NCBI GenBank assembly: GCA_031385045.1
Contig: JANNBC010000048.1
Location: forward strand, 54,321-118,320
DNA: 64,000 bases
Reading direction: 5' to 3'
From: a bacterium
GTDB taxonomy: Bacteria > Bdellovibrionota_C > UBA2361 > CALJRW01
Numbering within the stretch: position 1 is the stretch's first letter; every line of letters starts with the position of its first letter. This document shows, in pieces, positions 20,182-62,184 of the stretch. Under the pieces are notes generated by a model, which was not told the DNA's origin, searched no databases, and saw only the letters and a list, made by a program, of their open reading frames with translations. Position numbers and translations under genes: made by a program.

Positions 20182-20216
20182 AAGTGATATTCAGTTTTTG
20201 AGCTTATTAGATGAAA

Positions 20217-21995
20217 TTAAATAGCTAGATCATAATAAACATACTTCATAGCCTGCATAAAAACTCCAAATCGCTTTAGTAAAATATCTGGTGTTTCCTT
20301 CGCATCAGTTTCTAAAACCCAGCCTAAGTAACCTGTCCCTCTGGTTAAAAACTCCAGTTTTAAGTGATCAAATGCTGATAAACCTTCCTTGATTCCTAAC
20401 TGTCCATTTCCCTCCGTCCTAAAATAGGATTCTCGCAAAGTTAACAGCGTCTTTGCAAACAGTGGACTCCAAGCGACAACAGGCAAGTCTAATATCGCCT
20501 GACAAAGCTTTTCTTCTTGTTCAAAAGTCACACCGGCAGATTGTAAAACTTGAGCGACCGCCTTGGGATCAATATAAATAGAATTTTTTGTTAAGAACTC
20601 ATACAAAATATGCTTTTCCTTTGTCGGATCTAATTCCTTTGCAACTAATTTTTCAGTTGGTCCAGAAATTTTAGTATCATGGATATTAAAAACTTGATAA
20701 AATCTAGAGCAGTAGACATACAATAAATAGTGAATCAATTCTGGAGTTTCTTGATATCCATCGTTATTTAATACTTCCTGAACAACTAATAAGTCTTGAA
20801 TAAATTGTCCTTGAGCATCTAACAATTGTTGTCGAGTTTGTAGCGTTTCGCTATCAGGATTATTTCTGGCGAGAGAACTAATGAAATTTATTTTAATTGC
20901 CAGTGCCTCAACTGGTAAAAATTTTAATTCGGGAGTAGCCTGCCAGAGATCTACTGTAATTTGACGGAGGGTTGTTAAAAGCTCTTGATCCTCAATGACA
21001 CTAGTAAACCTGTCCATCTCAGTAGGACTTAAACTTGTTAAGTGGTGTAACCAATCATGATCAGCCATCTGATATACTGCTTGAATCGCTTGATAGATTC
21101 GCTGATCAATTTTATTTCCAGTGATACTCGCCACCCGAGAAAGAGCATTCATCGCTCGAGCATCAATTTCAACGGTACTCAGAGTTGCTGTATAACTAAT
21201 AATTTGATCTTCAAATCTTCGCGGATAAACTAATTCTGTGAAAGTATGATTATATAAAAAACCACTAACTAATTGTGGATTAAATAAATCCATTGTTGCG
21301 TGCGAAGAGTTGAGATCAGTGAATAAAGGAGAGATAACGACGGCAGAGCCCATAACTCTTCCAGTTCGAAAACTAATTTTAGCATGTAGTTGATGTAAAT
21401 CAGGACATTCCTGATAAGCAGAAATTGAATCTTCTAAATTGCTTAACCTTGCACCTGCATTCTCTAGACTACTAACTACAGCTGAATAAAAACTATCACT
21501 TTGCATTTGGAGAAGTTGCAATTGATGAAGCTTCTCAATAGGGGTTGTCATTAATAAATTAGTAAATTCTTTTTTATTAAAACCACTTCTTGCTCGATAC
21601 TCATTGGTAAAAAATGGATCTAGTAAATCTTCACTTAGATCAAGACAATGAATTTGTGAACATAACGAATACAACTTAACAATTACTTTTTCAGAAGTTA
21701 AGTATTCAAATAGTTCTTGGCGTGATTCACGGACGTAGGTTAGTAGACTTTTATAGAGGATATCAGGCGTTGAATAGAATAGCAGACCTAAAATTTCAGA
21801 ATTTGTACCAGGTTCATTGCCTGTAGAATTTCGACAATGAATTAAGAATGATTCAATTTCAGTGGAAAGCTTTTTAACAGAACCAAGAACATTTTGTGGC
21901 TCTAAAGATACTAAAAAGTTAGCTGACAGATCAGAATTAACCTGCGCTGGAACAGCTACTAAACTTGTTTTTGGTGAACTCTGACCACGAATCAT
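20217..21995 (-). CDS. hypothetical cytoplasmic protein (592 aa, ORFan)
   Basis: Long uninterrupted ORF with neither a signal peptide nor a recognisable motif. Confidence 0.45.
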   Translation of the reverse strand: MIRGQSSPKTSLVAVPAQVNSDLSANFLVSLEPQNVLGSVKKLSTEIESFLIHCRNSTGNEPGTNSEILGLLFYSTPDILYKSLLTYVRESRQELFEYLTSEKVIVKLYSLCSQIHCLDLSEDLLDPFFTNEYRARSGFNKKEFTNLLMTTPIEKLHQLQLLQMQSDSFYSAVVSSLENAGARLSNLEDSISAYQECPDLHQLHAKISFRTGRVMGSAVVISPLFTDLNSSHATMDLFNPQLVSGFLYNHTFTELVYPRRFEDQIISYTATLSTVEIDARAMNALSRVASITGNKIDQRIYQAIQAVYQMADHDWLHHLTSLSPTEMDRFTSVIEDQELLTTLRQITVDLWQATPELKFLPVEALAIKINFISSLARNNPDSETLQTRQQLLDAQGQFIQDLLVVQEVLNNDGYQETPELIHYLLYVYCSRFYQVFNIHDTKISGPTEKLVAKELDPTKEKHILYEFLTKNSIYIDPKAVAQVLQSAGVTFEQEEKLCQAILDLPVVAWSPLFAKTLLTLRESYFRTEGNGQLGIKEGLSAFDHLKLEFLTRGTGYLGWVLETDAKETPDILLKRFGVFMQAMKYVYYDLAI

Positions 21996-27845: not shown

Positions 27846-29048
27846 TTAGTTATCAGAAAAAACTTCTTCTAAAAGTTGCTTATAACTTTGTGGATGATGA
27901 AACTCAGGTTCTTCACGATTGTTTAATAAATGTACTGTTTCATTATATCCCCGCTCAATTAAACCTTGAATGTAATCAGGATCAAGGGCGACATAGGATA
28001 ATGTTTCATAGGCGACTTCTTCCCCTAATCTATTCTTTAAAATCTTAAAAATTGGCCAGATTGGGCCTACCGCACCAATAAACTTTCGAGACGAAGTATT
28101 TACAGAATTTTTTAAAAGTTCCCCCAGTGGTTTACGACAACGGATCACAAAAGTTTCCGGTGGTCGTAGACAAAAAGTCTTTTCTTGCGCTTCAACTTCC
28201 CAAGATGGACGTGTATCTAAAGAACTATTCTGGCGATTTAACCACCAATCTCTTCCGGAAATATCAATTGAGATAATTCGCTCTGCTCCCATCCGCACAG
28301 CTGGATCAACTGGAACATTCTGAGAAATACCACCATCAACTAAGCGCACAGTTCCTTCCTTGGTATCAAGTTCAACTGGTGGCAAGACAGAAGGTAGAGC
28401 TGCTGAGGCAAATCCATGCTTAGCCTGTAAAGAATCTACATAACAAACATCAAAACTTGCTCCTAACATCGCCGGTGACTCCAGCTCTTTATGAGAACTA
28501 ACAAATAATAATGGTCGACGAGTCTCCCCCTCGATTGTTGTCATTACTCCAACAGACTCTAATTGCGACAAACGGTTATTAGGATGAAGTCCGCCATGAT
28601 CATTAATGACTTGATCCACTCGCTCCATTAATGGTCGAGGATTAAAAATTGATTCGGTATTAGAATTAGGGCCGGGATTTAAAGATTGGATAGCGGCAAC
28701 TTTGATTGCTCGAAAAAAAGAAGCTGAAGGACTGTCGGCAAAGGTATTACGAAAAGTTCGCTCCTTCCAAAGCTCCTCGGTAACTTCTACGGCATGAGCA
28801 ATTCCCTCTTTTAAACAAGCACTAATCAATAAACCATTAATGGCTCCAAGGCTGGAACCAATCACTACCTTAATTGGATTATGTTCTTGATCTTGTAGAT
28901 AGGGGATTAGGGCCTTTAATGCACCAATTTGATAAGCTGCCCTACTTCCACCACCCGATAAAACTAAGCCGATAGCTCCTGCTCTTGTTGACCAGGGTGT
29001 TTTGTTTAAAATTGCTTTTTCTTGAAGATTTCTTGGGTGACGTCGCAT
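27846..29048 (-). CDS. patatin-like phospholipase
   Basis: Oxyanion GGGSRAAYQIG, nucleophile elbow GSSLG, and DGG catalytic Asp (VDGGISQN). 400 aa, including a C-terminal extension. Confidence 0.7.
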   Translation of the reverse strand: MRRHPRNLQEKAILNKTPWSTRAGAIGLVLSGGGSRAAYQIGALKALIPYLQDQEHNPIKVVIGSSLGAINGLLISACLKEGIAHAVEVTEELWKERTFRNTFADSPSASFFRAIKVAAIQSLNPGPNSNTESIFNPRPLMERVDQVINDHGGLHPNNRLSQLESVGVMTTIEGETRRPLLFVSSHKELESPAMLGASFDVCYVDSLQAKHGFASAALPSVLPPVELDTKEGTVRLVDGGISQNVPVDPAVRMGAERIISIDISGRDWWLNRQNSSLDTRPSWEVEAQEKTFCLRPPETFVIRCRKPLGELLKNSVNTSSRKFIGAVGPIWPIFKILKNRLGEEVAYETLSYVALDPDYIQGLIERGYNETVHLLNNREEPEFHHPQSYKQLLEEVFSDN

Positions 29049-49355: not shown

Positions 49356-50282
49356 CTACTTTGCGACAAATAAAACTGGGCGATAAGTACCGGGTGGAAA
49401 TTCAGCATTAAGGTTTCCATTTCGATACTGCTCTGAGGCATTCTTGAATGCAAAATAGATCTTGAAGTACCAGTCAACAAACTTAGCCCATCTGACTGAA
49501 CAGATAGAAAGAATCCTAGGTCGTTTTTTATTAAAATTGCTTTGTTTGGTATTTTTTGGCAAGGATCCTGGTTGTTTTTTTAGTAATTTATCGCGCCCTA
49601 CAAAGCCAACTCCATTACTCATTCTGCTTTGTACAATTTCTCTGATTCGCACTTCTAGTTTTTGAATCATCAATTTTTCATACTCATTCTGAGTAAGACT
49701 CTCATACCCAGGCAATCTTTTAAATTTTAATTGAACAGTGTAAGTATAATCTTCAATCCTAACATCATGAGACCATCTTTTCTTCTCATTATAATCTTTC
49801 CATTTCACCACCTTAAACTTTCGTACTATCCCCCTGATTGAATCATAAAAACAATTATACCCGGGATAATCTTTAATATGCCTCACCAATCCATCCTTAA
49901 CCGGCTGTAAGACAGTATAAAAAAAATATTCTTCAATATCATCAGCACCAGGCGTAAACTCATTGGAGTATCTTCTAGCAAAGAGATTACTTCCTGGAAA
50001 TTGACCACAACGTCTACTTACAGCACGAGCAATTGAAGCATTAAGATCTCTCATAAAACTAGCCCGATTGGAATTAGGAAAATGTGCCAGCTCATGATGA
50101 TGATTCCCCTCAATCGCAATAGCATATAGATCTACATTATAGATCTCAGAATACTTAGCAGTGTATGCCAAGATATCCTGTTCTAGCTGAAAATTATTAA
50201 TGAACCATAATTCGGAGTTCCTTGTTCTCGTCGTACAAAAGGAAGCTATTTCTGATGATTCAATTCTAGGATGATAAGACAT
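49356..50282 (-). CDS. HUH Y1 transposase-like protein (IS200/IS605 TnpA / REP-associated tyrosine transposase family) with a C-terminal extension
   Basis: HuH motif AIEGNHHHEL at roughly aa 60; RAYT-like block SFMRDLNASIARAVSRRCG; catalytic-helix motif YFFYTVLQPVKDGLV (Y…Q). 308 aa, of which ~140 form the Y1 domain. No inverted-repeat IS ends are visible. Confidence 0.6.
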   Translation of the reverse strand: MSYHPRIESSEIASFCTTRTRNSELWFINNFQLEQDILAYTAKYSEIYNVDLYAIAIEGNHHHELAHFPNSNRASFMRDLNASIARAVSRRCGQFPGSNLFARRYSNEFTPGADDIEEYFFYTVLQPVKDGLVRHIKDYPGYNCFYDSIRGIVRKFKVVKWKDYNEKKRWSHDVRIEDYTYTVQLKFKRLPGYESLTQNEYEKLMIQKLEVRIREIVQSRMSNGVGFVGRDKLLKKQPGSLPKNTKQSNFNKKRPRILSICSVRWAKFVDWYFKIYFAFKNASEQYRNGNLNAEFPPGTYRPVLFVAK

Positions 50283-50339: not shown

Positions 50340-50765
50340 CTAATTAACTACACCTTCAAAGTATCTGTTAACTTGATCTGTAGGCTCAATATCTTTTGAA
50401 TCATATGATACATGTCGACGATATTCATCTAATTCTATCCTATTGTTCTTGAGTAAATCATAGTTATTTTGAATAATAGAGTTATTATCTTTAATTTGCT
50501 TGTTTTGTTTATATTTTTTATACGCATACCTTGAGACAAGAACTGTCCCGGCACCTATCCCGGCACCAAGCCCGGCACTAGCTAATATATCACCATCAGA
50601 GATTGCCGCCCCGACTAACGCACCAGCGCCTGCTCCAATTCCAGCACCTACACCTGTAGCAGCTAAAGTAGACATGCCTTGCTCTTCATCGATTGTTGCG
50701 CAACCAACTAAGAGAACAAGTGAGAAGATAATAACTGTAAATTGATGAAATTTTTTAATACACAT
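50340..50765 (-). CDS. glycine-zipper (Rick_17kDa_Anti/SlyB-like) lipoprotein
   Basis: Lipobox LLVGC; GVGAGIGAGAGALVGA…GLGAGIGAG glycine-zipper repeats. Confidence 0.55.
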   Translation of the reverse strand: MCIKKFHQFTVIIFSLVLLVGCATIDEEQGMSTLAATGVGAGIGAGAGALVGAAISDGDILASAGLGAGIGAGTVLVSRYAYKKYKQNKQIKDNNSIIQNNYDLLKNNRIELDEYRRHVSYDSKDIEPTDQVNRYFEGVVN

Positions 50766-50782
50766 ATATGTATTATCAAAGT

Positions 50783-50812
50783 TGACTTAAATTTTGATTC
50801 AGATCAACATAA
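50783..50812 (+). promoter_or_regulatory. sigma70-like promoter for trmB (TTGACT-N18-CATAAT), 7 nt before the ATG at 50820
   Basis: Hexamers read directly from the sequence. Confidence 0.3.
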
Positions 50813-50819
50813 TTTAATC

Positions 50820-51464
50820 ATGAAAAACAATTGTAACCCTTATTCTGACTTAATCCACGAATTCTCTGATACCATCTGGAATGGCCTAAACAATCTACAA
50901 CTAGCTGAAATTACAAGTAAATTAACTAGCTACAATGATATTTACCTTGAAATTGGCAGTGGCTCAGGAAATTTTTTAATTAATCTAGCTAGTGCTAATC
51001 CAGACAAATTATACGTTGGAATTGAGCTAAGATATAAACGTTGCGTTAGAACGGTGCAAAAAGCTCAAAAGTTAGCCATTCAAAATCTACTAATTATTAG
51101 AGAAGATGCTAACTTAGTCCTTCCCCAACTTCTCCGAGAATCTATTAGTGGAGTTTATATCAATTTCCCGGATCCGTGGGCAAAAAAACGCTGGCTTAAA
51201 CACCGCATGATTTCTATAAAGTTCCTAGATGAAACCTCTCGTATCTTAAAAAAAGATGGATTTATTAAGCTCAAAACGGATCATTCCGACTATTATTACT
51301 CGAGTAGAGAGATCTTTCAAACTCACTCACAGTTTAAACTGCAAGACTTTTCCGAAGATCTACACAATAGCGACCTAAAAAAAACTAATATTCTTACGGA
51401 ATTTGAGCAGTTATTTCAATCTAAACAAAAACAGATCTACTTTGTACATTTTACACGAAGCTAA
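50820..51464 (+). CDS. trmB: tRNA (guanine46-N7)-methyltransferase TrmB
   Basis: EIGSGSGNFL (SAM motif I) and FPDPWAKKRW. Start set to the internal ATG at 50820 because the longer ORF would overlap the upstream gene, and a TTGACT-N18-CATAAT promoter lies at 50783-50812. Confidence 0.7.
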   Translation: MKNNCNPYSDLIHEFSDTIWNGLNNLQLAEITSKLTSYNDIYLEIGSGSGNFLINLASANPDKLYVGIELRYKRCVRTVQKAQKLAIQNLLIIREDANLVLPQLLRESISGVYINFPDPWAKKRWLKHRMISIKFLDETSRILKKDGFIKLKTDHSDYYYSSREIFQTHSQFKLQDFSEDLHNSDLKKTNILTEFEQLFQSKQKQIYFVHFTRS

Positions 51465-51817: not shown

Positions 51818-51997
51818 ATGAAGAATAAAGTTATAAACAATAAAATTAATAAAGTTGAAACAACTATCGGTGAGCTTGTTGAAGCTGTAACAAAGATTGC
51901 GGCTGAACATACATCAAATGAGCAAGAGCAATACATGCTAGCGTCACAGGCGATGGAAGAGCTACTGAATGCGCAACAACAACTAGATTTTAATTAA
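51818..51997 (+). CDS. small hypothetical protein (59 aa)
   Basis: Absent from the ORF track, which appears to omit ORFs under 60 aa. An AAGG lies 7 nt upstream of the ATG. Charged, helical peptide. Its 3' end overlaps the convergent gene by 8 nt. Confidence 0.3.
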   Translation: MKNKVINNKINKVETTIGELVEAVTKIAAEHTSNEQEQYMLASQAMEELLNAQQQLDFN

Positions 51998-52805
51998 TCA
52001 CAAATAAATCTGTTGAGATTTCTTTGTCAATCTGTGACTGCAAGTTACGGATATTAATTTTGACATCGTACTCCGGCACCTCCAGTTGAAGTATCTTGGG
52101 AAGTAATTGGTCTTCAAATGTTGCGTAATTAAGAATCTTACCTTTTAATATTACCTTTTCAGAACCCTTCTTATAAATAAGAAAATCTTGAATGAGGTTA
52201 TCTTGATCAGCGTTCCAAAAAAATTGCTGATCTTCCGTATAGTATGAAAGTAGATTTTTATTAGAAAAAATCTTAATTGAATCTAGCAACCAATTTTCCG
52301 GTGGTCTCCCACGTAGAATACTAAGAATCTCTTCTAAAGTTATTGGAATATGATAATATTTTTCGAATAAATCTTCAGTAAAAGCACCAACTTCTTCGGC
52401 ATTTTCTTGAGAATCATAATAAACATAATTCTCACCATTTGATATAAAATAATTACTAACCCAGCCTGCTTGCAATGGATATGTTTCAACCCGAAACATA
52501 TTTGGCGCTTTAAAAACCAAGCCCTGTCGAAAAGTATTAAAATTTTTGCCATATTTAAGACTAACATTAAGCAGAAATTTTGCACTTTCAATAGATTGCT
52601 GATTTTTTAATTCTAGAATTTTGTTACTAAGTGCAAGAAGTTCTAGTGGGACTCCAGTCTGCTGTGGATAAGGCTGATAGGCTTTTGAAGTACACGATGC
52701 TAGCAACAATAAAGCAAGCACCAGCATCCTAACTGGCCATTCATTAATTAAATTAGGCGCCAACTTAAACTGTCGACAGAAGAATGATTGATTTCTTAAC
52801 TTCAT
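51990..52805 (-). CDS. lipoprotein, hypothetical (possibly LolA/LolB-fold)
   Basis: Lipobox LLLASC; 271 aa; sits upstream (same strand) of the TPR lipoprotein. Confidence 0.45.
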   Translation of the reverse strand: MKLRNQSFFCRQFKLAPNLINEWPVRMLVLALLLLASCTSKAYQPYPQQTGVPLELLALSNKILELKNQQSIESAKFLLNVSLKYGKNFNTFRQGLVFKAPNMFRVETYPLQAGWVSNYFISNGENYVYYDSQENAEEVGAFTEDLFEKYYHIPITLEEILSILRGRPPENWLLDSIKIFSNKNLLSYYTEDQQFFWNADQDNLIQDFLIYKKGSEKVILKGKILNYATFEDQLLPKILQLEVPEYDVKINIRNLQSQIDKEISTDLFVIN

Positions 52806-52824
52806 AAAAATGAATTGATACCTA

Positions 52825-54537
52825 CTATTTTGAAATCTTGCTCTTTAATCTAACTTTTAACTTTCGGATTTCACTACTCAGATCAGCCTGGTTAGCAATT
52901 AATGAGGATTTTAAATAATACTCTTGTGCCTTCTTAGTATCACCAAGCTCTTTAATAATATCACCATAATGCTCTAATAAGACTGGATCGTCAGGTAAAA
53001 ACTTAAGTGCTCGATTCATTTGCTCTAAAGCAGCTGGATAATTTGCTTGTTTATAAAAAATCCAAGCTTTTGTATCGATAAAATATGCGCTCTGTGGGTC
53101 AAAAACTAAGGCCTGATCAACATACTGATGTGCGATATCAAGATGAGTACCTGCTTCAGCATAAGTAAAGGCAACAAAATTGAGTGCATCCTGATGATTT
53201 GGGTTTAGCTCTAAAATTTGAGCTAAAATTTCTAAACATTCAGAATCTCGATTTAATTCTTGGAGAACAACGGCATATTCAAACATTAATGCTTGCTCAT
53301 TCGGAAACTTTTCTAATAAATCAGGTAATAAATCTTCTAAGACGCTAAACTTTCTTTGTGCGTGCAATAAGCGAATGTACACCAACCATAATTCAAGATC
53401 TCCTTGATAGGTTTTAATCCCAACAAGTTCTTCCATCACCTTAGAGGCTTCAGGAACTTTCCGCATCTGTTGTAAGATCGTAACTGCTCCGAGCCTAGAC
53501 TTTAAAAAATGAGGACTCTCTGCTGGAACACTCATGAATTCTTGGACGGCTAAATCATATTTTTTTAAATTATTAAAGAATGTTGCCAAATAAAACCTTA
53601 CAGGGATGAAATCTGGATACATCAAGGAAAAGACTTGCAAGCTAATAATCGACTGATTTATGTTTTGTTGGCTAATAAAACTGCTTAAGTATTTAAAATT
53701 ATAATCTCGAATCATTTCAGGGACAGAACGAGTAGGTTCAATTAATGACTCTAAGCGTTCAGAAACTGCGGGATCTTGCTCGATCGATAGCAATAAATCC
53801 CTTGCAAAGGCATGCTTTCTATTTTGAATCTTTGTAGTCTTGAGATAGTCTTGAAGCTCAGAGGTATTTTTAGATCTAATCAAAAACTCCAGATATTCAT
53901 TCTCTAAGGCGACACACTCTGATTCTAAAATATGACATTGCTTAAAAACCCGATTGGCCTCTTCTAGATTGTCACTTGCAGCATAGGCTTCGGCCAATAA
54001 CGGTAATGTGAAATTACGTACTTTTTCGTTCCTAATCTTTGCTATTTCATCAATCAAACTATTAGCATCAGAAGTACTTCTAATTTCTCCAAAAAATTTA
54101 GCGATTAATAATTCATCGGCTTTGGGAAAAGCTTTAATTCCTTGATCAAAAGTTGTTTTTGCGAGTTCTTCATTATTATCTACTAAAAGTAAATCTCCAA
54201 GGAGGATATAATCAATCAACTCTGGGTTAATACGAATCTTTTCCTGTAATAAATAAATAGATTCCTCTACTTGCTTTTTAGTTAGCGAAATTTCTAATAA
54301 TCTTAGAATATAGTTCCCAGGATCTTCGTTATTGGCTTTGGCGGCTAAGCTTTGATAGTGCTGATAGGAACGCTCTAAATCTTCATTTTTAAAAGCCAAT
54401 TCACCAACAAGAAAGTTATAGTATTGGGAGGACTGCGTCTGATACGATCTTGGTGGCTTACTTGGGAAAATTGCTTGACTACTGCACCCTGAGCATAGGA
54501 GCAAGAATAGCACGATCAGAATTCGGACATTATACAT
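52825..54537 (-). CDS. TPR-repeat lipoprotein
   Basis: Lipobox LLCSGCSS; multiple 34-aa TPR-like repeats (W/LG/Y/A/F/A/P pattern) across 570 aa. Confidence 0.6.
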   Translation of the reverse strand: MYNVRILIVLFLLLCSGCSSQAIFPSKPPRSYQTQSSQYYNFLVGELAFKNEDLERSYQHYQSLAAKANNEDPGNYILRLLEISLTKKQVEESIYLLQEKIRINPELIDYILLGDLLLVDNNEELAKTTFDQGIKAFPKADELLIAKFFGEIRSTSDANSLIDEIAKIRNEKVRNFTLPLLAEAYAASDNLEEANRVFKQCHILESECVALENEYLEFLIRSKNTSELQDYLKTTKIQNRKHAFARDLLLSIEQDPAVSERLESLIEPTRSVPEMIRDYNFKYLSSFISQQNINQSIISLQVFSLMYPDFIPVRFYLATFFNNLKKYDLAVQEFMSVPAESPHFLKSRLGAVTILQQMRKVPEASKVMEELVGIKTYQGDLELWLVYIRLLHAQRKFSVLEDLLPDLLEKFPNEQALMFEYAVVLQELNRDSECLEILAQILELNPNHQDALNFVAFTYAEAGTHLDIAHQYVDQALVFDPQSAYFIDTKAWIFYKQANYPAALEQMNRALKFLPDDPVLLEHYGDIIKELGDTKKAQEYYLKSSLIANQADLSSEIRKLKVRLKSKISK

Positions 54538-54600: not shown

Positions 54601-55509
54601 CTATTTATAAAGCTTCTCGCCCACTCCAGCAAGCACCGCAGTTTTCCAGCGTCGATGGAACCAAAACCATTCTTCCGGGGCAACCAAAATCATTTCTTGC
54701 AGATCCTGCGAACAGACATCTGTAATCTTGTAAATCTTTTCATTCATACCAAGCGATTTATCCTGATATAGCTCTTGAAATTCTTGAATTCTGATATTCA
54801 GTCGATATTTACCATCTTCTGTTGAATTCATGCAGAAAGATACCATTGGAAGCTCATATCTCGCTCCGACTAGACCTACTGCGGGGGTAGTGGCAGCATA
54901 CTTACCAAACCATTTGATAAAAACTCCCTGACTCCGAACAACATTCTGATCAAAAAGAATTGCTACATCCATCTTCTCAGAAATCATTTTGAAAATTCTA
55001 CGAATAGCCCCTTTTCTAGGAATTAGCTGATTACCACCCTTGCTACGTTGCTCATTCCACCAAAGATCTAAGGCCTCAGGCTTTAGCTTACGCGCGACAA
55101 AAGCGATTGGACCAAACTGGACGCAAAGGTAACGAAGAATGAACTCAAAACTACCAATATGACCAGTTAGAATTAGAATTGGCTTATCAGGATATCTAGC
55201 TTTGAGATCTTTTAATTTCTGAAGATCGGGGCATTCAATATTCTCTAATATCCAGCTATCAGACAGTTCTTTCTGTCTTAGAACATCAACAATACAACGC
55301 CCCCAAACTCGATAGGACTGATTTAGAATCTGATAGTACTCCTCAGGAGTTTTATTGGGTAATGCTATCTGTAAATTAATCAAAGCCGTCTTTCTTAAGT
55401 CTTTAATTAAGAAACCTAAACTTTTCAAAATTAAGCTAAAGATGCTAATTCTTAATGCCAGCGGCAAAAGATTGAAACAAAAAATTGTATTTTTAATTAA
55501 CCAGTACAT
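54601..55509 (-). CDS. lpxL: lipid A biosynthesis (Kdo2-lipid IVA) acyltransferase, LpxL/LpxM/LpxP family
   Basis: N-terminal TM helix; HtrB/MsbB family blocks (…ILTGHIGSFE…, conserved H of the HX4D-like motif). Confidence 0.65.
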   Translation of the reverse strand: MYWLIKNTIFCFNLLPLALRISIFSLILKSLGFLIKDLRKTALINLQIALPNKTPEEYYQILNQSYRVWGRCIVDVLRQKELSDSWILENIECPDLQKLKDLKARYPDKPILILTGHIGSFEFILRYLCVQFGPIAFVARKLKPEALDLWWNEQRSKGGNQLIPRKGAIRRIFKMISEKMDVAILFDQNVVRSQGVFIKWFGKYAATTPAVGLVGARYELPMVSFCMNSTEDGKYRLNIRIQEFQELYQDKSLGMNEKIYKITDVCSQDLQEMILVAPEEWFWFHRRWKTAVLAGVGEKLYK

Positions 55510-55515
55510 AATTTA

Positions 55516-57369
55516 ATGATTAACATTAATAGATTAATCAAGTTAAAAGATAAATATCCAGATTTTTTGACTAATCAGGCTGCCTTAAGCCTTTTTTTAG
55601 CTAAGAACTTACCCCTAAGAATTGCGGGAATAACGATTAATCAACCTAATTACTGCCAAAGTACTACTTCCATCAGAGACGAATTACAAAAAATTAACCA
55701 TTTTTTTAAAATCAATTTTCTTACAATTAATGACTCTAATCAATTAAGGGAGGTATTTGAACAGATCCCAACATGCCTAGCAACAGAATATGATCAAAAT
55801 GCTGAAGTGATCTTCGATAACTTACTTTGTAGTCCAGCTAAAAATATTACTGGTACTTTTTATACACCACAAACCATCGCCAGCCTATTAGTGAAAGAGA
55901 CATTAGCTGAAGAACCAAGCATTAATTTTCAATATCTTGATCCAGCCTGTGGGGCAGGTATCTTTCTAAAAGCTTGCCTAAAAATATTTACCGGCAATTC
56001 TGAAAAGAAATTAACATTCATAGAAAATTCTTTATTTGGATATGATATTAATCAACAGGCCATAGAAATTTGTAAGTTCTTACTTTTAATTGAAGCCTTA
56101 AAAGACCACCCCAATCTCAATCGCAAAACCACTCTTCCTGATTTAAGTAAGAATTTTATCTGCCAAAATAGTCTACTCACAGAAATTGCTCAAAAGTTTG
56201 ATTATATCTTTTGTAACCCTCCTTTTGGCTTATCTCGCAATCAACAAATAGAGCAAGGAGAATTGGAAGAACTGACTAGGATTAACAATTGGTTTTTTAC
56301 AGGCAAACTTAATAAATATCTATTATTCTCCTTGAGATGCTTTCAGATGCTTAAGCCACAGGGATCTGCCGGCATCCTAACACCTAACTCTTGGCTAGGT
56401 ATCAGAGATGGCGAGAGCTTCAGGAAATATCTTTTAAATGAAAAAGCCCTGCCTAAGATTTTATGCTTTGAAAAAAAAATCTTCCCAAAACTTGGAGTGG
56501 AAACTGTTATCAGTATAATTTCTAAAAAACCAACTTCAAAGGTAATAATTAAAAAATTTAATCCTGAATTTGAATTAGCTAAATCTACCGAGATTGATCA
56601 TCATGTAATTTCTAATCATAAGAACTGTCTTATTCCCATGATTTGGCATGAGAATTTTCTAAATATTTTTAATCACTTACAAAAAACGACTAGTCCTCTT
56701 TCTGACTCCAAGCTAAATATTACTCCATCGATTGCCCTACAAGTTTATAGCCTAGGTCGTGGAACACCTCCTCAATCTGCAGAAATAGTCAAAAATAATT
56801 CTTTTCATTTTAAGAATAAACATACAGTGACAAGCCACCCTTATCTAAATGGCAAAGACTTAAGCTCCTTTCAGATCAATTGGTCAGGGCAATTCTTAGA
56901 CTACGGCCCCTGGGTAGCTGAATTTCAAGATTTTACACGCTACCAAAAGCCTCGATTACTCCTGAGAGAAGTACTAGGGAAACCACCCTACGTTATCAAG
57001 GCAACTGTAACTCACGAGATCTATTTATATAATAGATCCATTCTACACATCCATGCTCAAGATCCCAAGATTCTGCCACTAATTAATACAATTATGAATT
57101 CAAAATTTGCTAGTTTTTACTTATTGATTAAAGGAAGAAAAACAAACCGTAAAATCTTCCCAAAAATTGTCTTAGATGACCTAAAAGATTTCCCACTGCC
57201 CAATTTAGTCGATTATAATTCAAATGAGCTGAATGTCTTACTGGATAAGCCTTTAACTAGCGAAAATCGTTCATTACTTGATAAATTAGTCTATAAACAA
57301 TATTCTTTAAATTCAGAACAGATTAAGACTATTGAAGATACACTACAAGAATGGAAAGCGACATTTTAA
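55516..57369 (+). CDS. gamma-class N6-adenine DNA methyltransferase (HsdM/Eco57I/TaqI-like), apparently orphan
   Basis: Motif X GTFYTPQTIASLLV, motif I LDPACGAGIFL, motif IV FCNPPFG in the gamma order. A roughly 330-aa C-terminal target-recognition-like domain follows. No nuclease motif. Confidence 0.75.
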   Translation: MININRLIKLKDKYPDFLTNQAALSLFLAKNLPLRIAGITINQPNYCQSTTSIRDELQKINHFFKINFLTINDSNQLREVFEQIPTCLATEYDQNAEVIFDNLLCSPAKNITGTFYTPQTIASLLVKETLAEEPSINFQYLDPACGAGIFLKACLKIFTGNSEKKLTFIENSLFGYDINQQAIEICKFLLLIEALKDHPNLNRKTTLPDLSKNFICQNSLLTEIAQKFDYIFCNPPFGLSRNQQIEQGELEELTRINNWFFTGKLNKYLLFSLRCFQMLKPQGSAGILTPNSWLGIRDGESFRKYLLNEKALPKILCFEKKIFPKLGVETVISIISKKPTSKVIIKKFNPEFELAKSTEIDHHVISNHKNCLIPMIWHENFLNIFNHLQKTTSPLSDSKLNITPSIALQVYSLGRGTPPQSAEIVKNNSFHFKNKHTVTSHPYLNGKDLSSFQINWSGQFLDYGPWVAEFQDFTRYQKPRLLLREVLGKPPYVIKATVTHEIYLYNRSILHIHAQDPKILPLINTIMNSKFASFYLLIKGRKTNRKIFPKIVLDDLKDFPLPNLVDYNSNELNVLLDKPLTSENRSLLDKLVYKQYSLNSEQIKTIEDTLQEWKATF

Positions 57370-58550
57370 ACCACGAAAATATTACCAGATTAACAATTGA
57401 TGGTAAGGATGTAATCCTTATTGGAACTGCTCATGTTAGCCAAGAGAGCGTTGATTTAGTGCAAAGAGTAATCACTGAAGTTAAACCCGACACAATTGCC
57501 GTTGAACTTTGCGACTCTCGATATCAAAGTTTAAAAAATCCTGAAAAATGGAAAAGCCTAGATCTCTTTACTGTGATTAAAGAAGGTAAAGCCTTTGTTC
57601 TACTTTCCCAACTAATACTTTCTAGCTTTCAGAAAAAAATTGCTAAAGAATTAAAGATCCAACCTGGAGCTGAAATGATGGCGGCAATTAAGTTAGCTGA
57701 AGAACAAAATGCTCATTTAGTGTTAGCTGATCGAGACGTTAAAACAACACTTAAAAGAACTTGGGCTAACCTAAGTTTTTGGCAAGGATTAAAAGTGATG
57801 TCCACACTGCTGGCAGGCTTATTAACAAACGAGAAAGTATCTGCAGAAGATATTGAGAAATTAAAAAAGAACGATGCCTTAGAGGATGCAATGAAAGAAT
57901 TTGCTACGCAGTTTCCAACTGTTCGAGAAAGCTTAATTGATGAACGAGATCAATACCTAGCAGAAAAAATTCGCATCGCTTCAGGCAATACAATTGTTGC
58001 CGTGCTAGGAGCTGGACACTTACCTGGAATTAAAAAATATATTTACACTCCCAGAGACTTAGCTCCTCTAGAAGTGATTCCACCTCCTGGAAAATTTAAA
58101 AAATATTTCTCTTGGAGCATCCCAGTACTTTTTGTTTTAATCATTGTTTACTTAATAATCAATGGTAGCTCAGGAGAAGCAACTGGCTTTGTTTCTCTTT
58201 GGGTAATCCTAACAGCTTCCTTAGCAACATTTGGAGCCCTAGTTGTGCGAGCCCATCCGCTGACAACTCTTTCTGCTGCTATTTCAGCACCGCTGACAAC
58301 AATCCATCCATTAATTTCAGTTGGAATGGTTGCTGGATTAGTTGAAGCCTATATCAAAAAACCAACGGTATCTGACCTAGAAACCATTTCTGAAGATCTA
58401 ACAAGCTGGAATAAGGCGATTAATAATCAAGCAATCAAAATATTTTTAGTCCTGATTTCTACAAATTTATTTACTAGTATTCCTGCACTTTCTGTAATTC
58501 TTTACGGAACAATTACAACCGCAACTTCTTTCTTAAAAAATATATTTTAA
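57351..58550 (+). CDS. TraB/PrgY/GumN (Tiki-like) family protein with a C-terminal TM region
   Basis: Two GxxH motifs (LIGTAHVSQES and VLGAGHLPG) typical of the TraB family; about 4 C-terminal TM helices. Its first 19 nt overlap the MTase 3' end. Confidence 0.7.
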   Translation: MESDILNHENITRLTIDGKDVILIGTAHVSQESVDLVQRVITEVKPDTIAVELCDSRYQSLKNPEKWKSLDLFTVIKEGKAFVLLSQLILSSFQKKIAKELKIQPGAEMMAAIKLAEEQNAHLVLADRDVKTTLKRTWANLSFWQGLKVMSTLLAGLLTNEKVSAEDIEKLKKNDALEDAMKEFATQFPTVRESLIDERDQYLAEKIRIASGNTIVAVLGAGHLPGIKKYIYTPRDLAPLEVIPPPGKFKKYFSWSIPVLFVLIIVYLIINGSSGEATGFVSLWVILTASLATFGALVVRAHPLTTLSAAISAPLTTIHPLISVGMVAGLVEAYIKKPTVSDLETISEDLTSWNKAINNQAIKIFLVLISTNLFTSIPALSVILYGTITTATSFLKNIF

Positions 58551-58552
58551 TA

Positions 58553-58810
58553 ATGAATGATCCTTTTTTAAGATTTTATACCTTTGCAACGATTACGCTA
58601 AGTTGCTTCACCGGAGTGCTCATTGCAGTACCATTAGCTTTAAGTAATCCAAATCCACTTGCCTTATTATTGCTACCGTTCTTTGGCACAATGGGTGGCA
58701 TTGCTGGATATAGACGTAGAAATAGCCGTATTTTCTTTTATTTAAGCCTATTTGCGGTAGTAGTTTTATCAACTATTATTTGTGTTAATATAGTCAAGAA
58801 TGAATTCTAG
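58553..58810 (+). CDS. small membrane protein (85 aa, 2-3 TM helices)
   Basis: Hydrophobic segments; starts 3 nt after the TraB stop. Confidence 0.4.
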   Translation: MNDPFLRFYTFATITLSCFTGVLIAVPLALSNPNPLALLLLPFFGTMGGIAGYRRRNSRIFFYLSLFAVVVLSTIICVNIVKNEF

Positions 58811-59786
58811 TATTATCCAAACAGCTAAGTCAGTCCTCGCCTCTGAAGCACAAGCAATTTGTGATCTAGCGGAAACTATTGACGAACATTTTGTCAGCTC
58901 CGTAAAAGCCATTTTGGAAATGGAAAGGCATGGACATGTAATTGTCTCTGGAATGGGAAAAGCGGGTTTAATTGGTACAAAAATTTCAGCAACATTAGCT
59001 TCAATTGGAACTGCTTCCTTTTTCTTACATCCAGCAGAAGCTTTACATGGAGATCTAGGTCGCTATCGAAAAAATGACATTGCTCTAATCCTTTCTAATT
59101 CTGGGGAAACTGAAGAGATCTTAAAAACAATTCCTGCAATCCGCAGTATTGGATGTCCAATAATTTCAATCACTGCTACCCATGACAGTACACTAGCAAA
59201 GCAGAGCGATCTAACTATTGCCATTGGCAACTCAAATGAAGCAGGCAGTCTCGGATTAGCGCCAACAACCAGTACCTGTAAAATGCTGGCGATCGGCGAT
59301 GCCTTAGCAATGTGCCTAATGCATGAGAAAGGTTTATCCGCCAAAGACTTTGCTTTTTATCATCCTGGAGGAAACCTAGGAAGAGCACTAGTAAAAGTAT
59401 CAGAGCTAATGCGTACTGGAGATGAACTTTGCGTTCTAAGCGATCAGCTCTCAATTCAAGAAGTAATTAAAAGCTATAGCGCCACAAAAGGTCGTCCCGG
59501 AGCTTCAGTATTAGTCAATCAAGCAGGTAAAGTCACCGGAATATTTACAGATGGTGACTTAAGACGTTGTCTGGATCAGGGCCTTAACTTTTTAAACCAA
59601 CCAGTTTCCTCTGTAATGGGCAAATCTCCAAAATCAGTCAGACCCGATCTACTGGCAATGGAAGCATTAAAAGCCATGTCACAATTTAAGATCGACCAAA
59701 TTATTGTGATGAATGACAACTGTGAGCCCTTGGGAATGTTAGATATTCAGGACATCTGTTTCTTAGTCCCCGGCTCTCAAATCTAA
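58800..59786 (+). CDS. kdsD: arabinose-5-phosphate isomerase (KdsD/KpsF/GutQ family: SIS plus tandem CBS)
   Basis: SIS domain (VIVSGMGKAGLIGTKISATLASIGT…, LILSNSGETEE). C-terminal CBS pair. Confidence 0.75.
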   Translation: MNSSIIQTAKSVLASEAQAICDLAETIDEHFVSSVKAILEMERHGHVIVSGMGKAGLIGTKISATLASIGTASFFLHPAEALHGDLGRYRKNDIALILSNSGETEEILKTIPAIRSIGCPIISITATHDSTLAKQSDLTIAIGNSNEAGSLGLAPTTSTCKMLAIGDALAMCLMHEKGLSAKDFAFYHPGGNLGRALVKVSELMRTGDELCVLSDQLSIQEVIKSYSATKGRPGASVLVNQAGKVTGIFTDGDLRRCLDQGLNFLNQPVSSVMGKSPKSVRPDLLAMEALKAMSQFKIDQIIVMNDNCEPLGMLDIQDICFLVPGSQI

Positions 59787-59902: not shown

Positions 59903-60313
59903 ATGATTCATAATAATCTAGCGGGATTCACATTAACTGAATTACTATCAGTCATCATGCTTGTAGGAATAGTCTGGGCGATCTCTAATTTAACTGGATC
60001 CGAAATACAAAAAACAATTACAGCTAAAACTGAACTAGAGCAGTTAAAATTAGAATTCGAAAAACAAATATCATATGCAAATATTACCAAAGAAAAAATT
60101 CAAATAATTCCAGAGAATATAAGACTAAAGGTTATCGGGAATAAATTTATCTACGAAATTCCACTAAAAAATCAACTCCTAATTAATTCTAACGAACATC
60201 AACTAAATTTTCACCCCAGGCAAGTTTGCTCTCCAGCCAGTATTTCCTCGAATGCAAATAAAAGCTGTCATTTAATAATCTCCTTGCGATGTCGTATGCG
60301 AATTCAATGCTAA
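59903..60313 (+). CDS. type IV pilin-like / T2SS pseudopilin (GspH/FimT-like)
   Basis: Class III signal peptide MIHNNLAG|FTLTELLSVIMLVGIV, with E at +5. Confidence 0.65.
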   Translation: MIHNNLAGFTLTELLSVIMLVGIVWAISNLTGSEIQKTITAKTELEQLKLEFEKQISYANITKEKIQIIPENIRLKVIGNKFIYEIPLKNQLLINSNEHQLNFHPRQVCSPASISSNANKSCHLIISLRCRMRIQC

Positions 60314-60558
60314 GTTTTAATCATAATGGATTTGGTCTACTCGAAATATTACTTAGCTTAATAATTTTGAGTCTGATGATTGGTTCGATCCTCTCCCTTC
60401 AAAACAAATCATTATTAGAACGCAACATTAGTCGACCAAAGTTCGATTCAGCTTCAGGTGAATTTAAAAATTGCCAAATAAAGAGAATAAAAACTTATAA
60501 GATACTAGTTTGTAATGAACTCAATTTCCCTAATCTTCCAAAATATATCTTCTTTTAA
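60289..60558 (+). CDS. pseudopilin (GspI/PilV-like), small
   Basis: Prepilin motif NHNG|FGLLEILLSLIILSL. Confidence 0.5.
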   Translation: MSYANSMLSFNHNGFGLLEILLSLIILSLMIGSILSLQNKSLLERNISRPKFDSASGEFKNCQIKRIKTYKILVCNELNFPNLPKYIFF

Positions 60559-61399
60559 CATAACTCAAAGGCAACAGGCTTCAAGTCTGATCGAATTACT
60601 AGTAGTAATCTCACTCAGTCTCTTTCTTTCCTTAGTTGGCTATCAAGTCCTAAAAACTTCAATCGCAATTAAAAAAGTTATCGGTATTGATTATCAAAAA
60701 AGTTATCAAGCCGTGCGGCTTAAAAGTTTAATCGAAGATATAATTCAAGATCTCAGCTGGCATACTTTGCCAATTGAACCAAAGATTTTCGGTAAAGGCG
60801 AAATTAATATTGATGGCGATCCATTTCTACTTAGTAGCGATCCATTAAAACTACCAAACGTAAGATCGGATGCGATTAGCTACCTGAGCCTAGATTATTC
60901 TCATTTAATCCATGTTACTTTGAATGAAAATCTAATCTTAGAAGGTTGTAGTGATAAGCTTATTCCTAATATTCTATATAATTTTATTGGAATTGACTTG
61001 GGTGGAGTTAGCTATTTCCAAGGCTATGCTAGAAAAATAGCAGTAGGTTGCTATCAATTCCAAGTTATTCAAATGCCAAATTTAATCTTGGCTAAACGTC
61101 ATGAGAAGTTTCCGATATTTACTAAAATCTTGATTCCAGTGGTTGATGAATATTTAGTATATGTAGATCGAACAAATCAACTTCGATATGTAACACTTAA
61201 AGGCTTAAATATTTTGGAAAACCAGCCAGTTTTTGAAGATGCTCCAGATTTATCACTTAGCCTGATTAAATATGAACAGGTCTGGCAATTAGATTTAAGG
61301 TGGAAATATCCAGAGCAGCTACCAGAGAAAGAATTTAAGCAAGTTGGGACAGCTCGACTTGCTCGCCAGTCACTCGGAAATTTATTATTAAACTTATGA
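60515..61399 (+). CDS. pseudopilin (GspJ/PilW-like)
   Basis: N-terminal …ASSLIELLVVISLSLFL pilin-like hydrophobic helix with E. 294 aa. The start codon is uncertain, since the listed one overlaps the upstream gene by 44 nt. Confidence 0.5.
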   Translation: MNSISLIFQNISSFNITQRQQASSLIELLVVISLSLFLSLVGYQVLKTSIAIKKVIGIDYQKSYQAVRLKSLIEDIIQDLSWHTLPIEPKIFGKGEINIDGDPFLLSSDPLKLPNVRSDAISYLSLDYSHLIHVTLNENLILEGCSDKLIPNILYNFIGIDLGGVSYFQGYARKIAVGCYQFQVIQMPNLILAKRHEKFPIFTKILIPVVDEYLVYVDRTNQLRYVTLKGLNILENQPVFEDAPDLSLSLIKYEQVWQLDLRWKYPEQLPEKEFKQVGTARLARQSLGNLLLNL

Positions 61400-62184
61400 A
61401 AGGTTTAATTAGTATCTACTTACTAATTATCTTAATGATCTCTACAGTATTAATCCTCGGTACATTTGAAGAGACCTTTAGCATGTTAACTCAGATTAAA
61501 TTTAGCATCAGTCATCAAAGAAAAATTGCAAATCAACAAGAAATTTTGCTTGGTCAATTAACAGACCTGGATCCTACCACTTCCCAAAGGAAGTTTTGCG
61601 TTCAGAATCAATCGGAAAAACTTTGTTACTTAAACAATAGTTTATTTGATCAAGGCAATCAGTCCGACATCATTGCAAATCTTAGTAATCAAAATCTACT
61701 ACTAGACTTCGCTAATTATGAACGATTAAGCGAAAAATGTGTTTATTCAATCCCAGCACAAAACCAGCTAGAATGGAACTTGGTTAACCCCAAAACCTGC
61801 TTACAAATTAAATCTTCATTAAAACCTGAAGCTTATTATGAATTTAACTTGGCATTGGAAGATTTTGAAATATCAACTAAGCAACTGTTACTTATAAATG
61901 GATATACTGCAATTAATAACCTACTAGTCATAAAAAATGCTACGATCATTAGTCTTGGAGACTTAATCATCGATAATTTAATCCTTACCGAACAGGCGGA
62001 AATCAATTTAATTTCGGTTCGCGGCAAAGTACATATTCGACATTATAGCGAGGATGCTCATTTGTTTCAGAAAACTGATTCTTGCTGGCAAATTGGCTCT
62101 GGCTATAAAAGACCTTCTATCCCAAATCTAAAATTTATCGAAACAATGGCCTTTAGCCTAACTCCCAAAATCCCAAGCAATTAA
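61396..62184 (+). CDS. pseudopilin (GspK/PilX-like)
   Basis: N-terminal hydrophobic helix MKGLISIYLLIILMISTVLIL without E5, as in GspK. Last gene of the four-gene cluster, with a 4-nt overlap. Confidence 0.45.
   Translation: MKGLISIYLLIILMISTVLILGTFEETFSMLTQIKFSISHQRKIANQQEILLGQLTDLDPTTSQRKFCVQNQSEKLCYLNNSLFDQGNQSDIIANLSNQNLLLDFANYERLSEKCVYSIPAQNQLEWNLVNPKTCLQIKSSLKPEAYYEFNLALEDFEISTKQLLLINGYTAINNLLVIKNATIISLGDLIIDNLILTEQAEINLISVRGKVHIRHYSEDAHLFQKTDSCWQIGSGYKRPSIPNLKFIETMAFSLTPKIPSN

Follow-up and report, generated by a model that had tools for sequence, protein, structure and literature searches.

Bacteria are known to achieve epigenetic regulation mainly through orphan DNA methyltransferases (MTases) that are maintained throughout a lineage, such as Dam, CcrM, and CamA, and each newly defined family of these enzymes offers a handle on gene regulation in its own lineage. 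The enzymes of restriction–modification (R-M) systems diversify their specificity; lineage-wide orphans keep theirs. Orphan Type II MTases occur in 48% of the organisms surveyed, and genus-level conservation was reported for 57% of orphan MTases versus 9% of R-M MTases (PMC4752239). Among the orphans, CamA is species-conserved in Clostridioides difficile, where it targets CAAAAA (PMC8187626). The subject of the present analysis is a gene for an N6-adenine DNA MTase of the gamma class, found in a stretch of 64,000 nt (64 kb; hereafter, the window) of contig JANNBC010000048.1 from a bacterium of the Bdellovibrionota_C. The gene overlaps the reading frame of a TraB-family protein, the downstream neighbor. 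It is considered likely that the enzyme is a solitary, lineage-conserved MTase, vertically inherited and with a fixed target, which is functionally unrelated to the adjacent TraB. No paper describing the clade to which it belongs, or any orphan MTase of the Bdellovibrionota, was found in the literature searched. The clade is thus a new family of fair size, although its kind of enzyme is well known.

The protein is a monomeric two-domain MTase with intact motifs and a conserved recognition domain; no linked nuclease was recognized, and its gene occupies a vertically inherited core locus. Its motifs appear in the order X, I, IV and are followed by a C-terminal recognition domain (Table 1), which is the order characteristic of the gamma class. 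Motif IV reads NPPF in the window protein and NPPY in the clade consensus. The Pfam models N6_Mtase (PF02384; 87.5 bits, cut-off 20.4) and Eco57I (PF07669; 77.8 bits, cut-off 25.3) both matched, and residues 441–561 correspond to the TaqI_C specificity domain (PF12950; 44.1 bits, cut-off 26.5), but no nuclease domain was detected in the polypeptide with Pfam. An AlphaFold2 model built on 28 clade members (predicted local distance difference test, 91.4; predicted template modeling score, 0.89) exhibited the two-domain fold of solved gamma-class MTases. Its best match among solved structures was CamA (Foldseek E = 1.7e-27; template modeling score 0.72 normalized to CamA; ∼590 aligned columns), followed by M.BseCI and M.TaqI. 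As judged from the model, this fold together with a helical N-terminal stretch fills the whole polypeptide, and a nuclease has no room. Because Pfam found no nuclease domain and the 617 residues are covered by a CamA-like fold, the protein does not classify as a Type IIG/Type II R-M enzyme.

CamA (PDB 7LNI, 7LT5) is not only the best match to the window MTase among solved structures in both sequence and fold; it is likewise a monomeric gamma-class enzyme in which the catalytic domain precedes the C-terminal DNA-recognition domain, and likewise a lineage-conserved orphan without restriction partner (PMC8187626). However, the two share only ∼16% identity in the structural alignment, their sequence similarity is confined to residues 100–349 of the window protein (phmmer E = 5e-15), the latter carries an N-terminal extension of ∼85 amino acids (aa), and the organisms belong to different phyla. 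CamA is, thus, an analogue and fold relative rather than an orthologue, and its established target (CAAAAA) and role in sporulation are its own. M.TaqI and M.BseCI share the two-domain fold, the motif order, and the TaqI_C-type specificity domain (17–21% identity). Each of them has a restriction endonuclease as its partner, whereas none was recognized for the window MTase; moreover, the recognition domain of the window clade is conserved rather than variable. The Type IIG/IIL fusions (MmeI/Eco57I-like; from Leptospira and Micromonospora) are closer in sequence, with 26–33% identity over the MTase and recognition domains and the same succession of an Eco57I/N6_Mtase and a TaqI_C domain. They differ in possessing an extra N-terminal region of ∼450 aa (in one case with an HSDR_N nuclease domain), where the window MTase has a helical stretch of ∼100 aa, and in that the recognition domain is their least conserved region.

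None of the more specific models for related systems claimed the protein. The MmeI_Mtase model scored 16 bits, below its cut-off of 27. TIGR02987, which describes the Alw26I/Eco31I/Esp3I family of Type IIS adenine MTases, was the best NCBIfam match covering both domains, but with 79.1 bits fell far below its cut-off of 353.5. The models for PglX of BREX (50 bits, cut-off 500) and for MAD2 of MADS (45.8 bits, cut-off 720) scored lower still, and no genes of either system were present in the window. With PADLOC, generic MTase models matched, and nothing more specific.

A word-indexed search returned 191 homologues of the MTase. The top ∼65 are stand-alone proteins of 500–730 aa; below them follow Type IIG-like fusion proteins of ∼900–1050 aa. 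When 1.84 billion cluster representatives were searched exhaustively with HMMER, ∼135 stand-alone representatives (mostly 500–730 aa) scored no less than 218 bits, and larger proteins (∼1000–1100 aa) again followed below them. All clade members with a source label stem from uncultured, metagenome-assembled genomes, most of them labeled Bdellovibrionota, Bdellovibrionales, or Oligoflexia, and a few Deltaproteobacteria, Dadabacteria, Proteobacteria, or plain bacterium. The nearest relatives from a named genus, Leptospira, are Type IIG-like proteins of 951–1097 aa, one of which carries an HSDR_N nuclease domain. Given their size of ∼1000 aa, the ∼450 extra N-terminal residues, and the Type IIG-like layout, they were rejected as orthologues and treated as outgroup. 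The best relatives from plasmids and phages showed at most 26% identity. A genome scan with a 10-sequence alignment contributed ∼8 true orthologues among 80 returned loci, the rest being distant MTases, and a metagenome scan added three more, two of them on short contigs.

Conservation within the clade is unevenly distributed along the protein. Among the 28 aligned members, mean pairwise column identity was 0.49 in the recognition domain, compared with 0.30 and 0.40 in the two catalytic halves and 0.15 at the N-terminus. The invariant residues of the recognition domain include Q409, Y411, Q420, R480, R484, E485, Y505, S508, K542, R545, and K550. Enlarging the set to 61 members left the profile unchanged (0.50 versus 0.30 and 0.42), whereas it was reversed in 44 Type IIG-like outgroup proteins, where the recognition domain was the lowest (0.34 versus 0.57 and 0.39). 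Because the conservation profile of the clade is of the orphan type and is reversed in the outgroup, it is indirect evidence for a single conserved target sequence; the clade would accordingly share one fixed motif, and the recognition domain predicts that this is one common N6-methyladenine (m6A) motif. Deriving the motif from k-mer statistics of the window was set aside, as 64 kb is too small and an orphan MTase implies no expectation of motif avoidance.

The gene was further characterized by its surroundings. An earlier note, made from the sequence alone, had described three open reading frames (ORFs) here: an MTase with motifs X, I, and IV in gamma-class order, a target-recognition domain, and no nuclease domain; a TraB-family protein with two GxxH motifs and a C-terminal transmembrane region; and an 85-aa membrane protein. 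All three were recovered at the positions given there. Motif positions and Pfam bore out the description of the MTase, and PF01963, TIGR00261, and hydropathy that of TraB; each of the profiles proposed for checking (PF02384, PF12950, and PF01963) scored above its curated cut-off. The overlap between the MTase and TraB reading frames is, as the note had it, exactly 19 nt. From the stop codon of TraB to the start codon (ATG) of the 85-aa ORF, however, the distance is 2 nt (TA) and not 3 nt. The 85-aa ORF in turn overlaps by 11 nt a gene for an arabinose-5-phosphate isomerase of the KdsD type, the last gene of the run, so that four genes are tightly packed rather than three. On the other side, the divergent gene for an LpxL-like lipid A acyltransferase starts 6 nt from the MTase start codon.

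To counter sampling bias, orthologous loci (designated L with a number) were gathered not only from the MTase homologues and the genome and metagenome scans but also from TraB homologues, and all were scored by tblastn with the window proteins. Thirteen distinct lineages, the window included, bear the MTase. TraB is adjacent to it in four of the 13, separated from it in three, and absent from the flank in six (Table 1). In the first group, the length of the frame overlap is 19 nt for both the window and L001, 14 nt for L086, and 11 nt for L174, the MTases of the latter three being 64% (L001, on the same contig as L006), 39%, and 41% identical to that of the window. The earlier note would have taken an adjacency unique to this genome as a refutation of its proposal. 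The adjacency is not unique, as it recurs in related lineages, but it is part of a larger housekeeping gene order and not a pair inherited together. The most constant neighbor of the MTase is LpxL, not TraB: it lies upstream in 11 of the 13 lineages, in seven directly adjacent, in two within 1–2 kb, and in two separated from it by a 9-kb GH94 gene. Inspection of the 13 orthologous loci revealed no recognizable restriction or specificity gene beside the MTase. Across loci, pairwise MTase identity was correlated with the identities of both LpxL (Spearman 0.59; 0.52 after removal of the closest pair) and KdsD (Spearman 0.84). Together, synteny with LpxL and co-divergence with both LpxL and KdsD indicate that the MTase has been inherited vertically within a long-standing order of housekeeping genes.

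The window itself has the gene content of a core chromosome, including Cmk, TrmO, the Mla system, an AddAB-like helicase–nuclease pair, an O-antigen ABC transporter, glycosyltransferases, Ffh, TrmD, BacA, MetK, TrmB, LpxL, KdsD, and pseudopilins. Around the MTase, the GC fraction is 0.34–0.36, the same as in the flanks, and no flanking repeats that might bound an island were found. Neither tRNA genes nor Rfam families at gathering threshold were detected over its full length of 64 kb. Among the window ORFs of at least 150 aa, about a dozen of which have no Pfam match, no restriction or specificity gene was recognized.

Table 1. Features of the MTase locus and its orthologues (nucleotide positions refer to the window).
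Feature	Position or loci	Strand	Evidence or remark
Stand-alone gamma-class N6-adenine DNA methyltransferase, 617 aa	55516..57369	+	Pfam, AlphaFold2 model, fold matches, clade
MTase layout: helical N-terminal region (residues 1–∼100), catalytic Rossmann domain (∼100–345), TaqI_C-type recognition domain (∼400–561), helical C-terminal tail			
Motif X, GTFYTPQ, residues 113–119	55852..55872	+	G113, T117, P118 invariant (28-sequence alignment A1)
Motif I, DPACGAGIF, predicted S-adenosyl-methionine (AdoMet) binding, residues 142–150	55939..55965	+	P143, C145, G146, G148 invariant (28-sequence alignment)
Motif IV, NPPF, predicted catalytic, residues 234–237	56215..56226	+	N234, P235, P236 invariant (28-sequence alignment)
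MTase target-recognition domain, residues 401–561	56716..57198	+	Best-conserved part of the clade
TraB/PrgY/GumN (Tiki-superfamily) protein, 399 aa	57351..58550	+	PF01963 E = 1e-37; TIGR00261
Small membrane protein, 85 aa, two hydrophobic helices	58553..58810	+	Hydropathy, alignment, position
KdsD/KpsF-type arabinose-5-phosphate isomerase (SIS + CBS)	58800..59786	+	TIGR00393 269 bits, cut-off 203.7; Pfam SIS, CBS
Lipid A biosynthesis acyltransferase (LpxL-like)	54601..55509	-	PF03279 E = 1e-45
TPR protein (570 aa) and predicted lipoprotein (271 aa), conserved upstream block	51990..54537	-	Synteny
LpxL, MTase, TraB, small protein, KdsD; MTase and TraB frames overlapping	Window, L001, L086, L174		
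MTase–TraB gap of 5.7–8.8 kb with unrelated genes between (P-type ATPase, EamA, acetyltransferase, others)	L005, L007, L088		
MTase present, no TraB within 8–10 kb downstream	L003, L009, L010, L087, L089, L090		
LpxL, 75 nt, then TraB, small protein, KdsD	L173		No MTase match at E ≤ 0.01 in 12 kb

The probable action of the enzyme can be outlined. Motifs X and I would bind AdoMet, the C-terminal TaqI_C-type domain would read a specific DNA sequence, and the target adenine, once flipped into the NPPF pocket, would receive a methyl group at N6. The clade most likely derived from a Type IIG-like R-M fusion through loss of the N-terminal nuclease part, after which the gene would have been passed on vertically in a fixed chromosomal slot beside the lipid A acyltransferase gene. 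Given that no other part of the protein is as well conserved as the recognition domain and that no nuclease partner was recognized, the methyl mark would most likely act at one fixed motif in an epigenetic or housekeeping capacity, influencing transcription or post-replicative timing in the manner of Dam, CcrM, and CamA, and would not serve the discrimination of self from non-self. The MTase, thus, probably has a regulatory role, which is, like its activity and its target motif, predicted from sequence. The 19-nt overlap with TraB would reflect compaction of an old housekeeping gene order and no functional partnership; the four packed genes are probably co-transcribed in this sub-lineage.

Several observations do not sit easily with this interpretation. 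Inspection covered 64 kb of the source genome, and a restriction enzyme unlinked to the MTase may be encoded elsewhere; the approximately one dozen larger window ORFs lacking a Pfam match could not be assessed in this respect. The outgroup used as the control for the conservation profile is heterogeneous, and the p-values of the co-divergence are nominal, the pairs being non-independent. Compared with the closest relative, L001, the MTase (64% identity) diverges faster than its neighbors (79–87%). In L173, the MTase is missing from its slot, although the neighbors there are as near to those of the window as are those of L174 (LpxL, 42% in both); the gene is, thus, dispensable or relocatable in at least one lineage. 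Finally, overlapping MTase and TraB frames persist in four lineages down to ∼40% MTase identity, and some coupling of their expression seems to be maintained in this sub-lineage. (A dN/dS comparison between the window and L001 was set aside because synonymous sites are saturated at 64% amino acid identity.)

Dam of the Gammaproteobacteria and CcrM of the Alphaproteobacteria resemble the window MTase in concept: vertically inherited orphan m6A MTases with one fixed target throughout the lineage, involved in regulation and replication timing (PMC3973325, PMC4752239). However, they belong to the alpha and beta MTase classes and have no sequence relationship to it. Their essentiality and cell cycle roles have been shown, whereas the role of the window MTase is a predicted one and one lineage lacks the gene in the slot. 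Its absence there and its faster divergence than the neighboring genes argue against strict essentiality, and the absence also against an essential, CcrM-like role. A bolder version of the favored explanation would make the clade the Dam/CcrM equivalent of an uncultured Bdellovibrionota lineage: wedged between LpxL and the genes for TraB, the small protein, and KdsD, the MTase would be an epigenetic regulator with a fixed motif, co-expressed with these envelope genes in the sub-lineage with overlapping frames, and would couple the methylation state of the chromosome to outer-membrane biogenesis during an unusual growth and division cycle. This is considered unlikely as a whole; the part of it that finds support is that of a conserved orphan with a probably fixed target.

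Four further explanations dispense with a solitary DNA MTase in regulatory service, and the first concerns the gene next door. The earlier note had left the choice between a solitary, regulatory MTase and a module in which TraB and the membrane protein replace the canonical nuclease; in other words, a new methylation-associated defense system with a TraB-like metalloprotease and its membrane partner as effector. The overlapping frames (19 nt in the window and L001, 14 nt in L086, and 11 nt in L174), the persistence of the adjacency to ∼40% MTase identity, and the low-level resemblance of the catalytic core to the defense MTases PglX and MAD2 are all compatible with such a module. Yet unrelated genes amounting to 5.7–8.8 kb separate the two genes in three of 13 lineages and six of 13 have no TraB within 8–10 kb, whereas L173 has kept TraB, the small protein, and KdsD beside LpxL without the MTase. 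In the homologue searches, moreover, TraB outnumbered the MTase ∼40-fold; it occurs by itself on contigs labeled as other phyla, and neither it nor the small protein has a PADLOC match. The locus is core and vertically inherited, flanked by lipopolysaccharide and housekeeping genes and not a variable defense island, and the conservation of the recognition domain runs counter to the pattern of diversifying defense systems. The synteny data, thus, largely refute the module, which is now very improbable, and the MTase–TraB overlap should stay off lists of candidate defense systems. Of the other branch of that choice, solitude held up (no restriction gene recognized, a stand-alone clade, co-divergence, and a conserved recognition domain), while the regulatory role is a prediction. 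The premise behind the choice, that HsdM/Eco57I/TaqI-like MTases normally have a restriction partner, was too strong, given that orphan Type II MTases occur in 48% of the organisms surveyed (PMC4752239).

A partner need not be adjacent, and the enzyme might be the modification half of a conventional Type II R-M system with the restriction enzyme encoded elsewhere in the genome, of which 64 kb were open to inspection. The nearest relatives outside the clade are indeed R-M fusion enzymes, the best two-domain NCBIfam match is the Alw26I/Eco31I/Esp3I Type IIS family (albeit with 79 bits against a cut-off of 353.5), and L086 encodes a second, Type IIG-like enzyme of 775 aa 7 kb away. However, R-M genes are almost always linked, and no recognizable nuclease lies beside the MTase in the 13 orthologous loci. 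The fixed chromosomal slot, the co-divergence with LpxL and KdsD, and the conserved recognition domain are features of orphan MTases, and close plasmid or phage relatives are lacking. R-M MTases are also rarely conserved even at the genus level (9%; PMC4752239). On the whole, an unlinked R-M system is improbable. That the protein methylates RNA or protein instead of DNA might be suspected, as (N/D)PP(Y/F) is common to HemK/PrmC glutamine MTases and some rRNA m6A MTases, as JGI names several homologues "methylase of polypeptide subunit release factors", and as the housekeeping surroundings include genes for tRNA modification (TrmB, 50742–51464, and TrmD further upstream). This is highly unlikely in view of the full-length fold match to DNA-bound CamA, M.BseCI, and M.TaqI, which includes the DNA-reading C-terminal domain, the TaqI_C specificity domain scoring above its Pfam cut-off, the subthreshold score of HemK-type models (MTS, 16.7 bits; cut-off 23), and Type IIG R-M enzymes forming the nearest outgroup. 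Equally slim is the chance that an intact but functionless ORF has been left behind by a decaying R-M system: its absence from the L173 slot and its faster divergence (64% versus 79–87% identity to L001) could be read that way, but ∼135 diverged representatives have kept their full length, the catalytic motifs are invariant, and the recognition domain is highly conserved. Such purifying selection across distances of roughly 30–40% identity is incompatible with a neutral relic.

In L086, the 775-aa Type IIG-like MTase (18931–21258; N6_Mtase, MmeI_Mtase, Eco57I, TaqI_C, and a faint HSDR_N_2 match) lies ∼7 kb downstream of the orphan. As L086 holds both enzymes, the orphan clade and its R-M-type relatives can coexist in one genome. 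L087 (13910–14410) and L089 (15343–15918) encode staphylococcal-nuclease-like proteins (PF00565) 2–4 kb downstream of the MTase; these genes are non-adjacent and unlike restriction enzymes, and are probably part of the local gene order.

The TraB protein downstream of the MTase matched both PF01963 (130.9 bits, cut-off 26.8) and TIGR00261 (332.8 bits, cut-off 178.35) and, thus, belongs to the TraB/PrgY/GumN (Tiki) superfamily, with which it shares the full-length match, both GxxH motifs, the acidic residues, and a C-terminal membrane domain. Its predicted N-terminal hydrolase domain contains GTAH at residue 25 and GAGH at residue 220, and three segments in its C-terminal third exceed a strict hydropathy threshold. 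In 20 sequences with several phylum labels, G25-T-A-H28, E52, E108, D127, D197-E198, D200, and G220-A-G-H223 are invariant, and the mean column identity of 61% shows TraB to be better conserved than the MTase. It differs from enterococcal PrgY and TraB in lying on no plasmid and outside any pheromone-system context, and in the window lineage a specific small membrane protein and KdsD are added downstream. Its homologues number 7,755, at which point the search was saturated, as opposed to 191 for the MTase. Lone orthologues with 48–49% identity were found on contigs labeled Phycisphaerales and Desulfobacterales, with no MTase, small membrane gene, or KdsD near TraB on these contigs. No PADLOC model matched TraB or the 85-aa protein at E ≤ 0.01. 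PrsA came up as a solved-structure relative of TraB, but the match was weak and was judged spurious. The protein is, thus, predicted to be a strongly conserved, membrane-anchored metallohydrolase of the Tiki type. Membrane-anchored Tiki/TraB proteins of bacteria and archaea are predicted metalloproteases to which no function has yet been assigned (PMC12462473).

The 85-aa ORF behind TraB is a real gene. Equivalents follow TraB in L001, L005, L086, L088, L173, and L174 (in the last two directly, as detected by tblastn), and the five aligned proteins (window, L001, L086, L088, and L005) share GY(R/K)(R/K)xxSRxFFY between two hydrophobic helices. A sequence search returned close relatives only; the wider conservation was demonstrated by position and alignment. 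The small protein would be a lineage-specific membrane partner of TraB, the two forming a unit of their own that travels with KdsD here. The trio of TraB, small protein, and KdsD is kept in six lineages (window, L001, L086, L088, L173, and L174), near or beside the divergent LpxL, which places a membrane-anchored TraB/Tiki protein in a neighborhood of genes for lipid A and 3-deoxy-D-manno-octulosonic acid (Kdo). On the TraB contigs labeled as other phyla (L170 and L172), this link to lipid A/Kdo genes is absent. The trio beside LpxL offers a modest clue to what membrane-anchored TraB/Tiki proteins do.

Upstream, the start codons of LpxL and the MTase are 6 nt apart not only in the window but also in L001 and L086; the distance is 1 nt in L174, and the genes overlap in L089. 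With starts this close, either each promoter lies inside the coding sequence of the other gene, or the starts were called too far upstream. No convincing promoter emerged from a consensus scan, which yielded 14 promoter-like sites versus 21 expected; the operon structure is deduced from gene spacing. A sigma-70-like site (57190–57219, + strand; TTCCCA, 18 nt, TATAAT; 10 of 12 matches) falls within the 3′-terminal part of the MTase coding sequence, ∼130 nt before the TraB start. It could be an internal promoter for expression of TraB, the small protein, and KdsD without the MTase, as judged from a match to the consensus in a region poorer in such sites than shuffled controls. The block of genes for a TPR protein and a predicted lipoprotein beyond LpxL is syntenic in L001, L003, L005, L007, L008, L009, L086, L173, and L174.

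More distant parts of the window hold three further features. A run of six ORFs (592, 207, 423, 710, 203, and 572 aa) between 20217 and 30853 has no Pfam match at E ≤ 1e-8, its sole interruption being a gene for a patatin-like phospholipase (27846–29048). At 49356–50282 on the minus strand, a 308-aa ORF shows a subthreshold match to IS200/Y1 transposases (21.9 bits, cut-off 23); L001 has a syntenic counterpart with 69% identity, and the ORF resembles a domesticated or repetitive extragenic palindrome (REP)-associated tyrosine-transposase-like gene more than a mobile element. Downstream of KdsD, a cluster of small genes without strong Pfam matches (59903–62184) is syntenic in L001 and L174; the product of the first has a prepilin-type N-terminus (AGFTLTELL), and the cluster looks like a pseudopilin or type IV pilin-like set.

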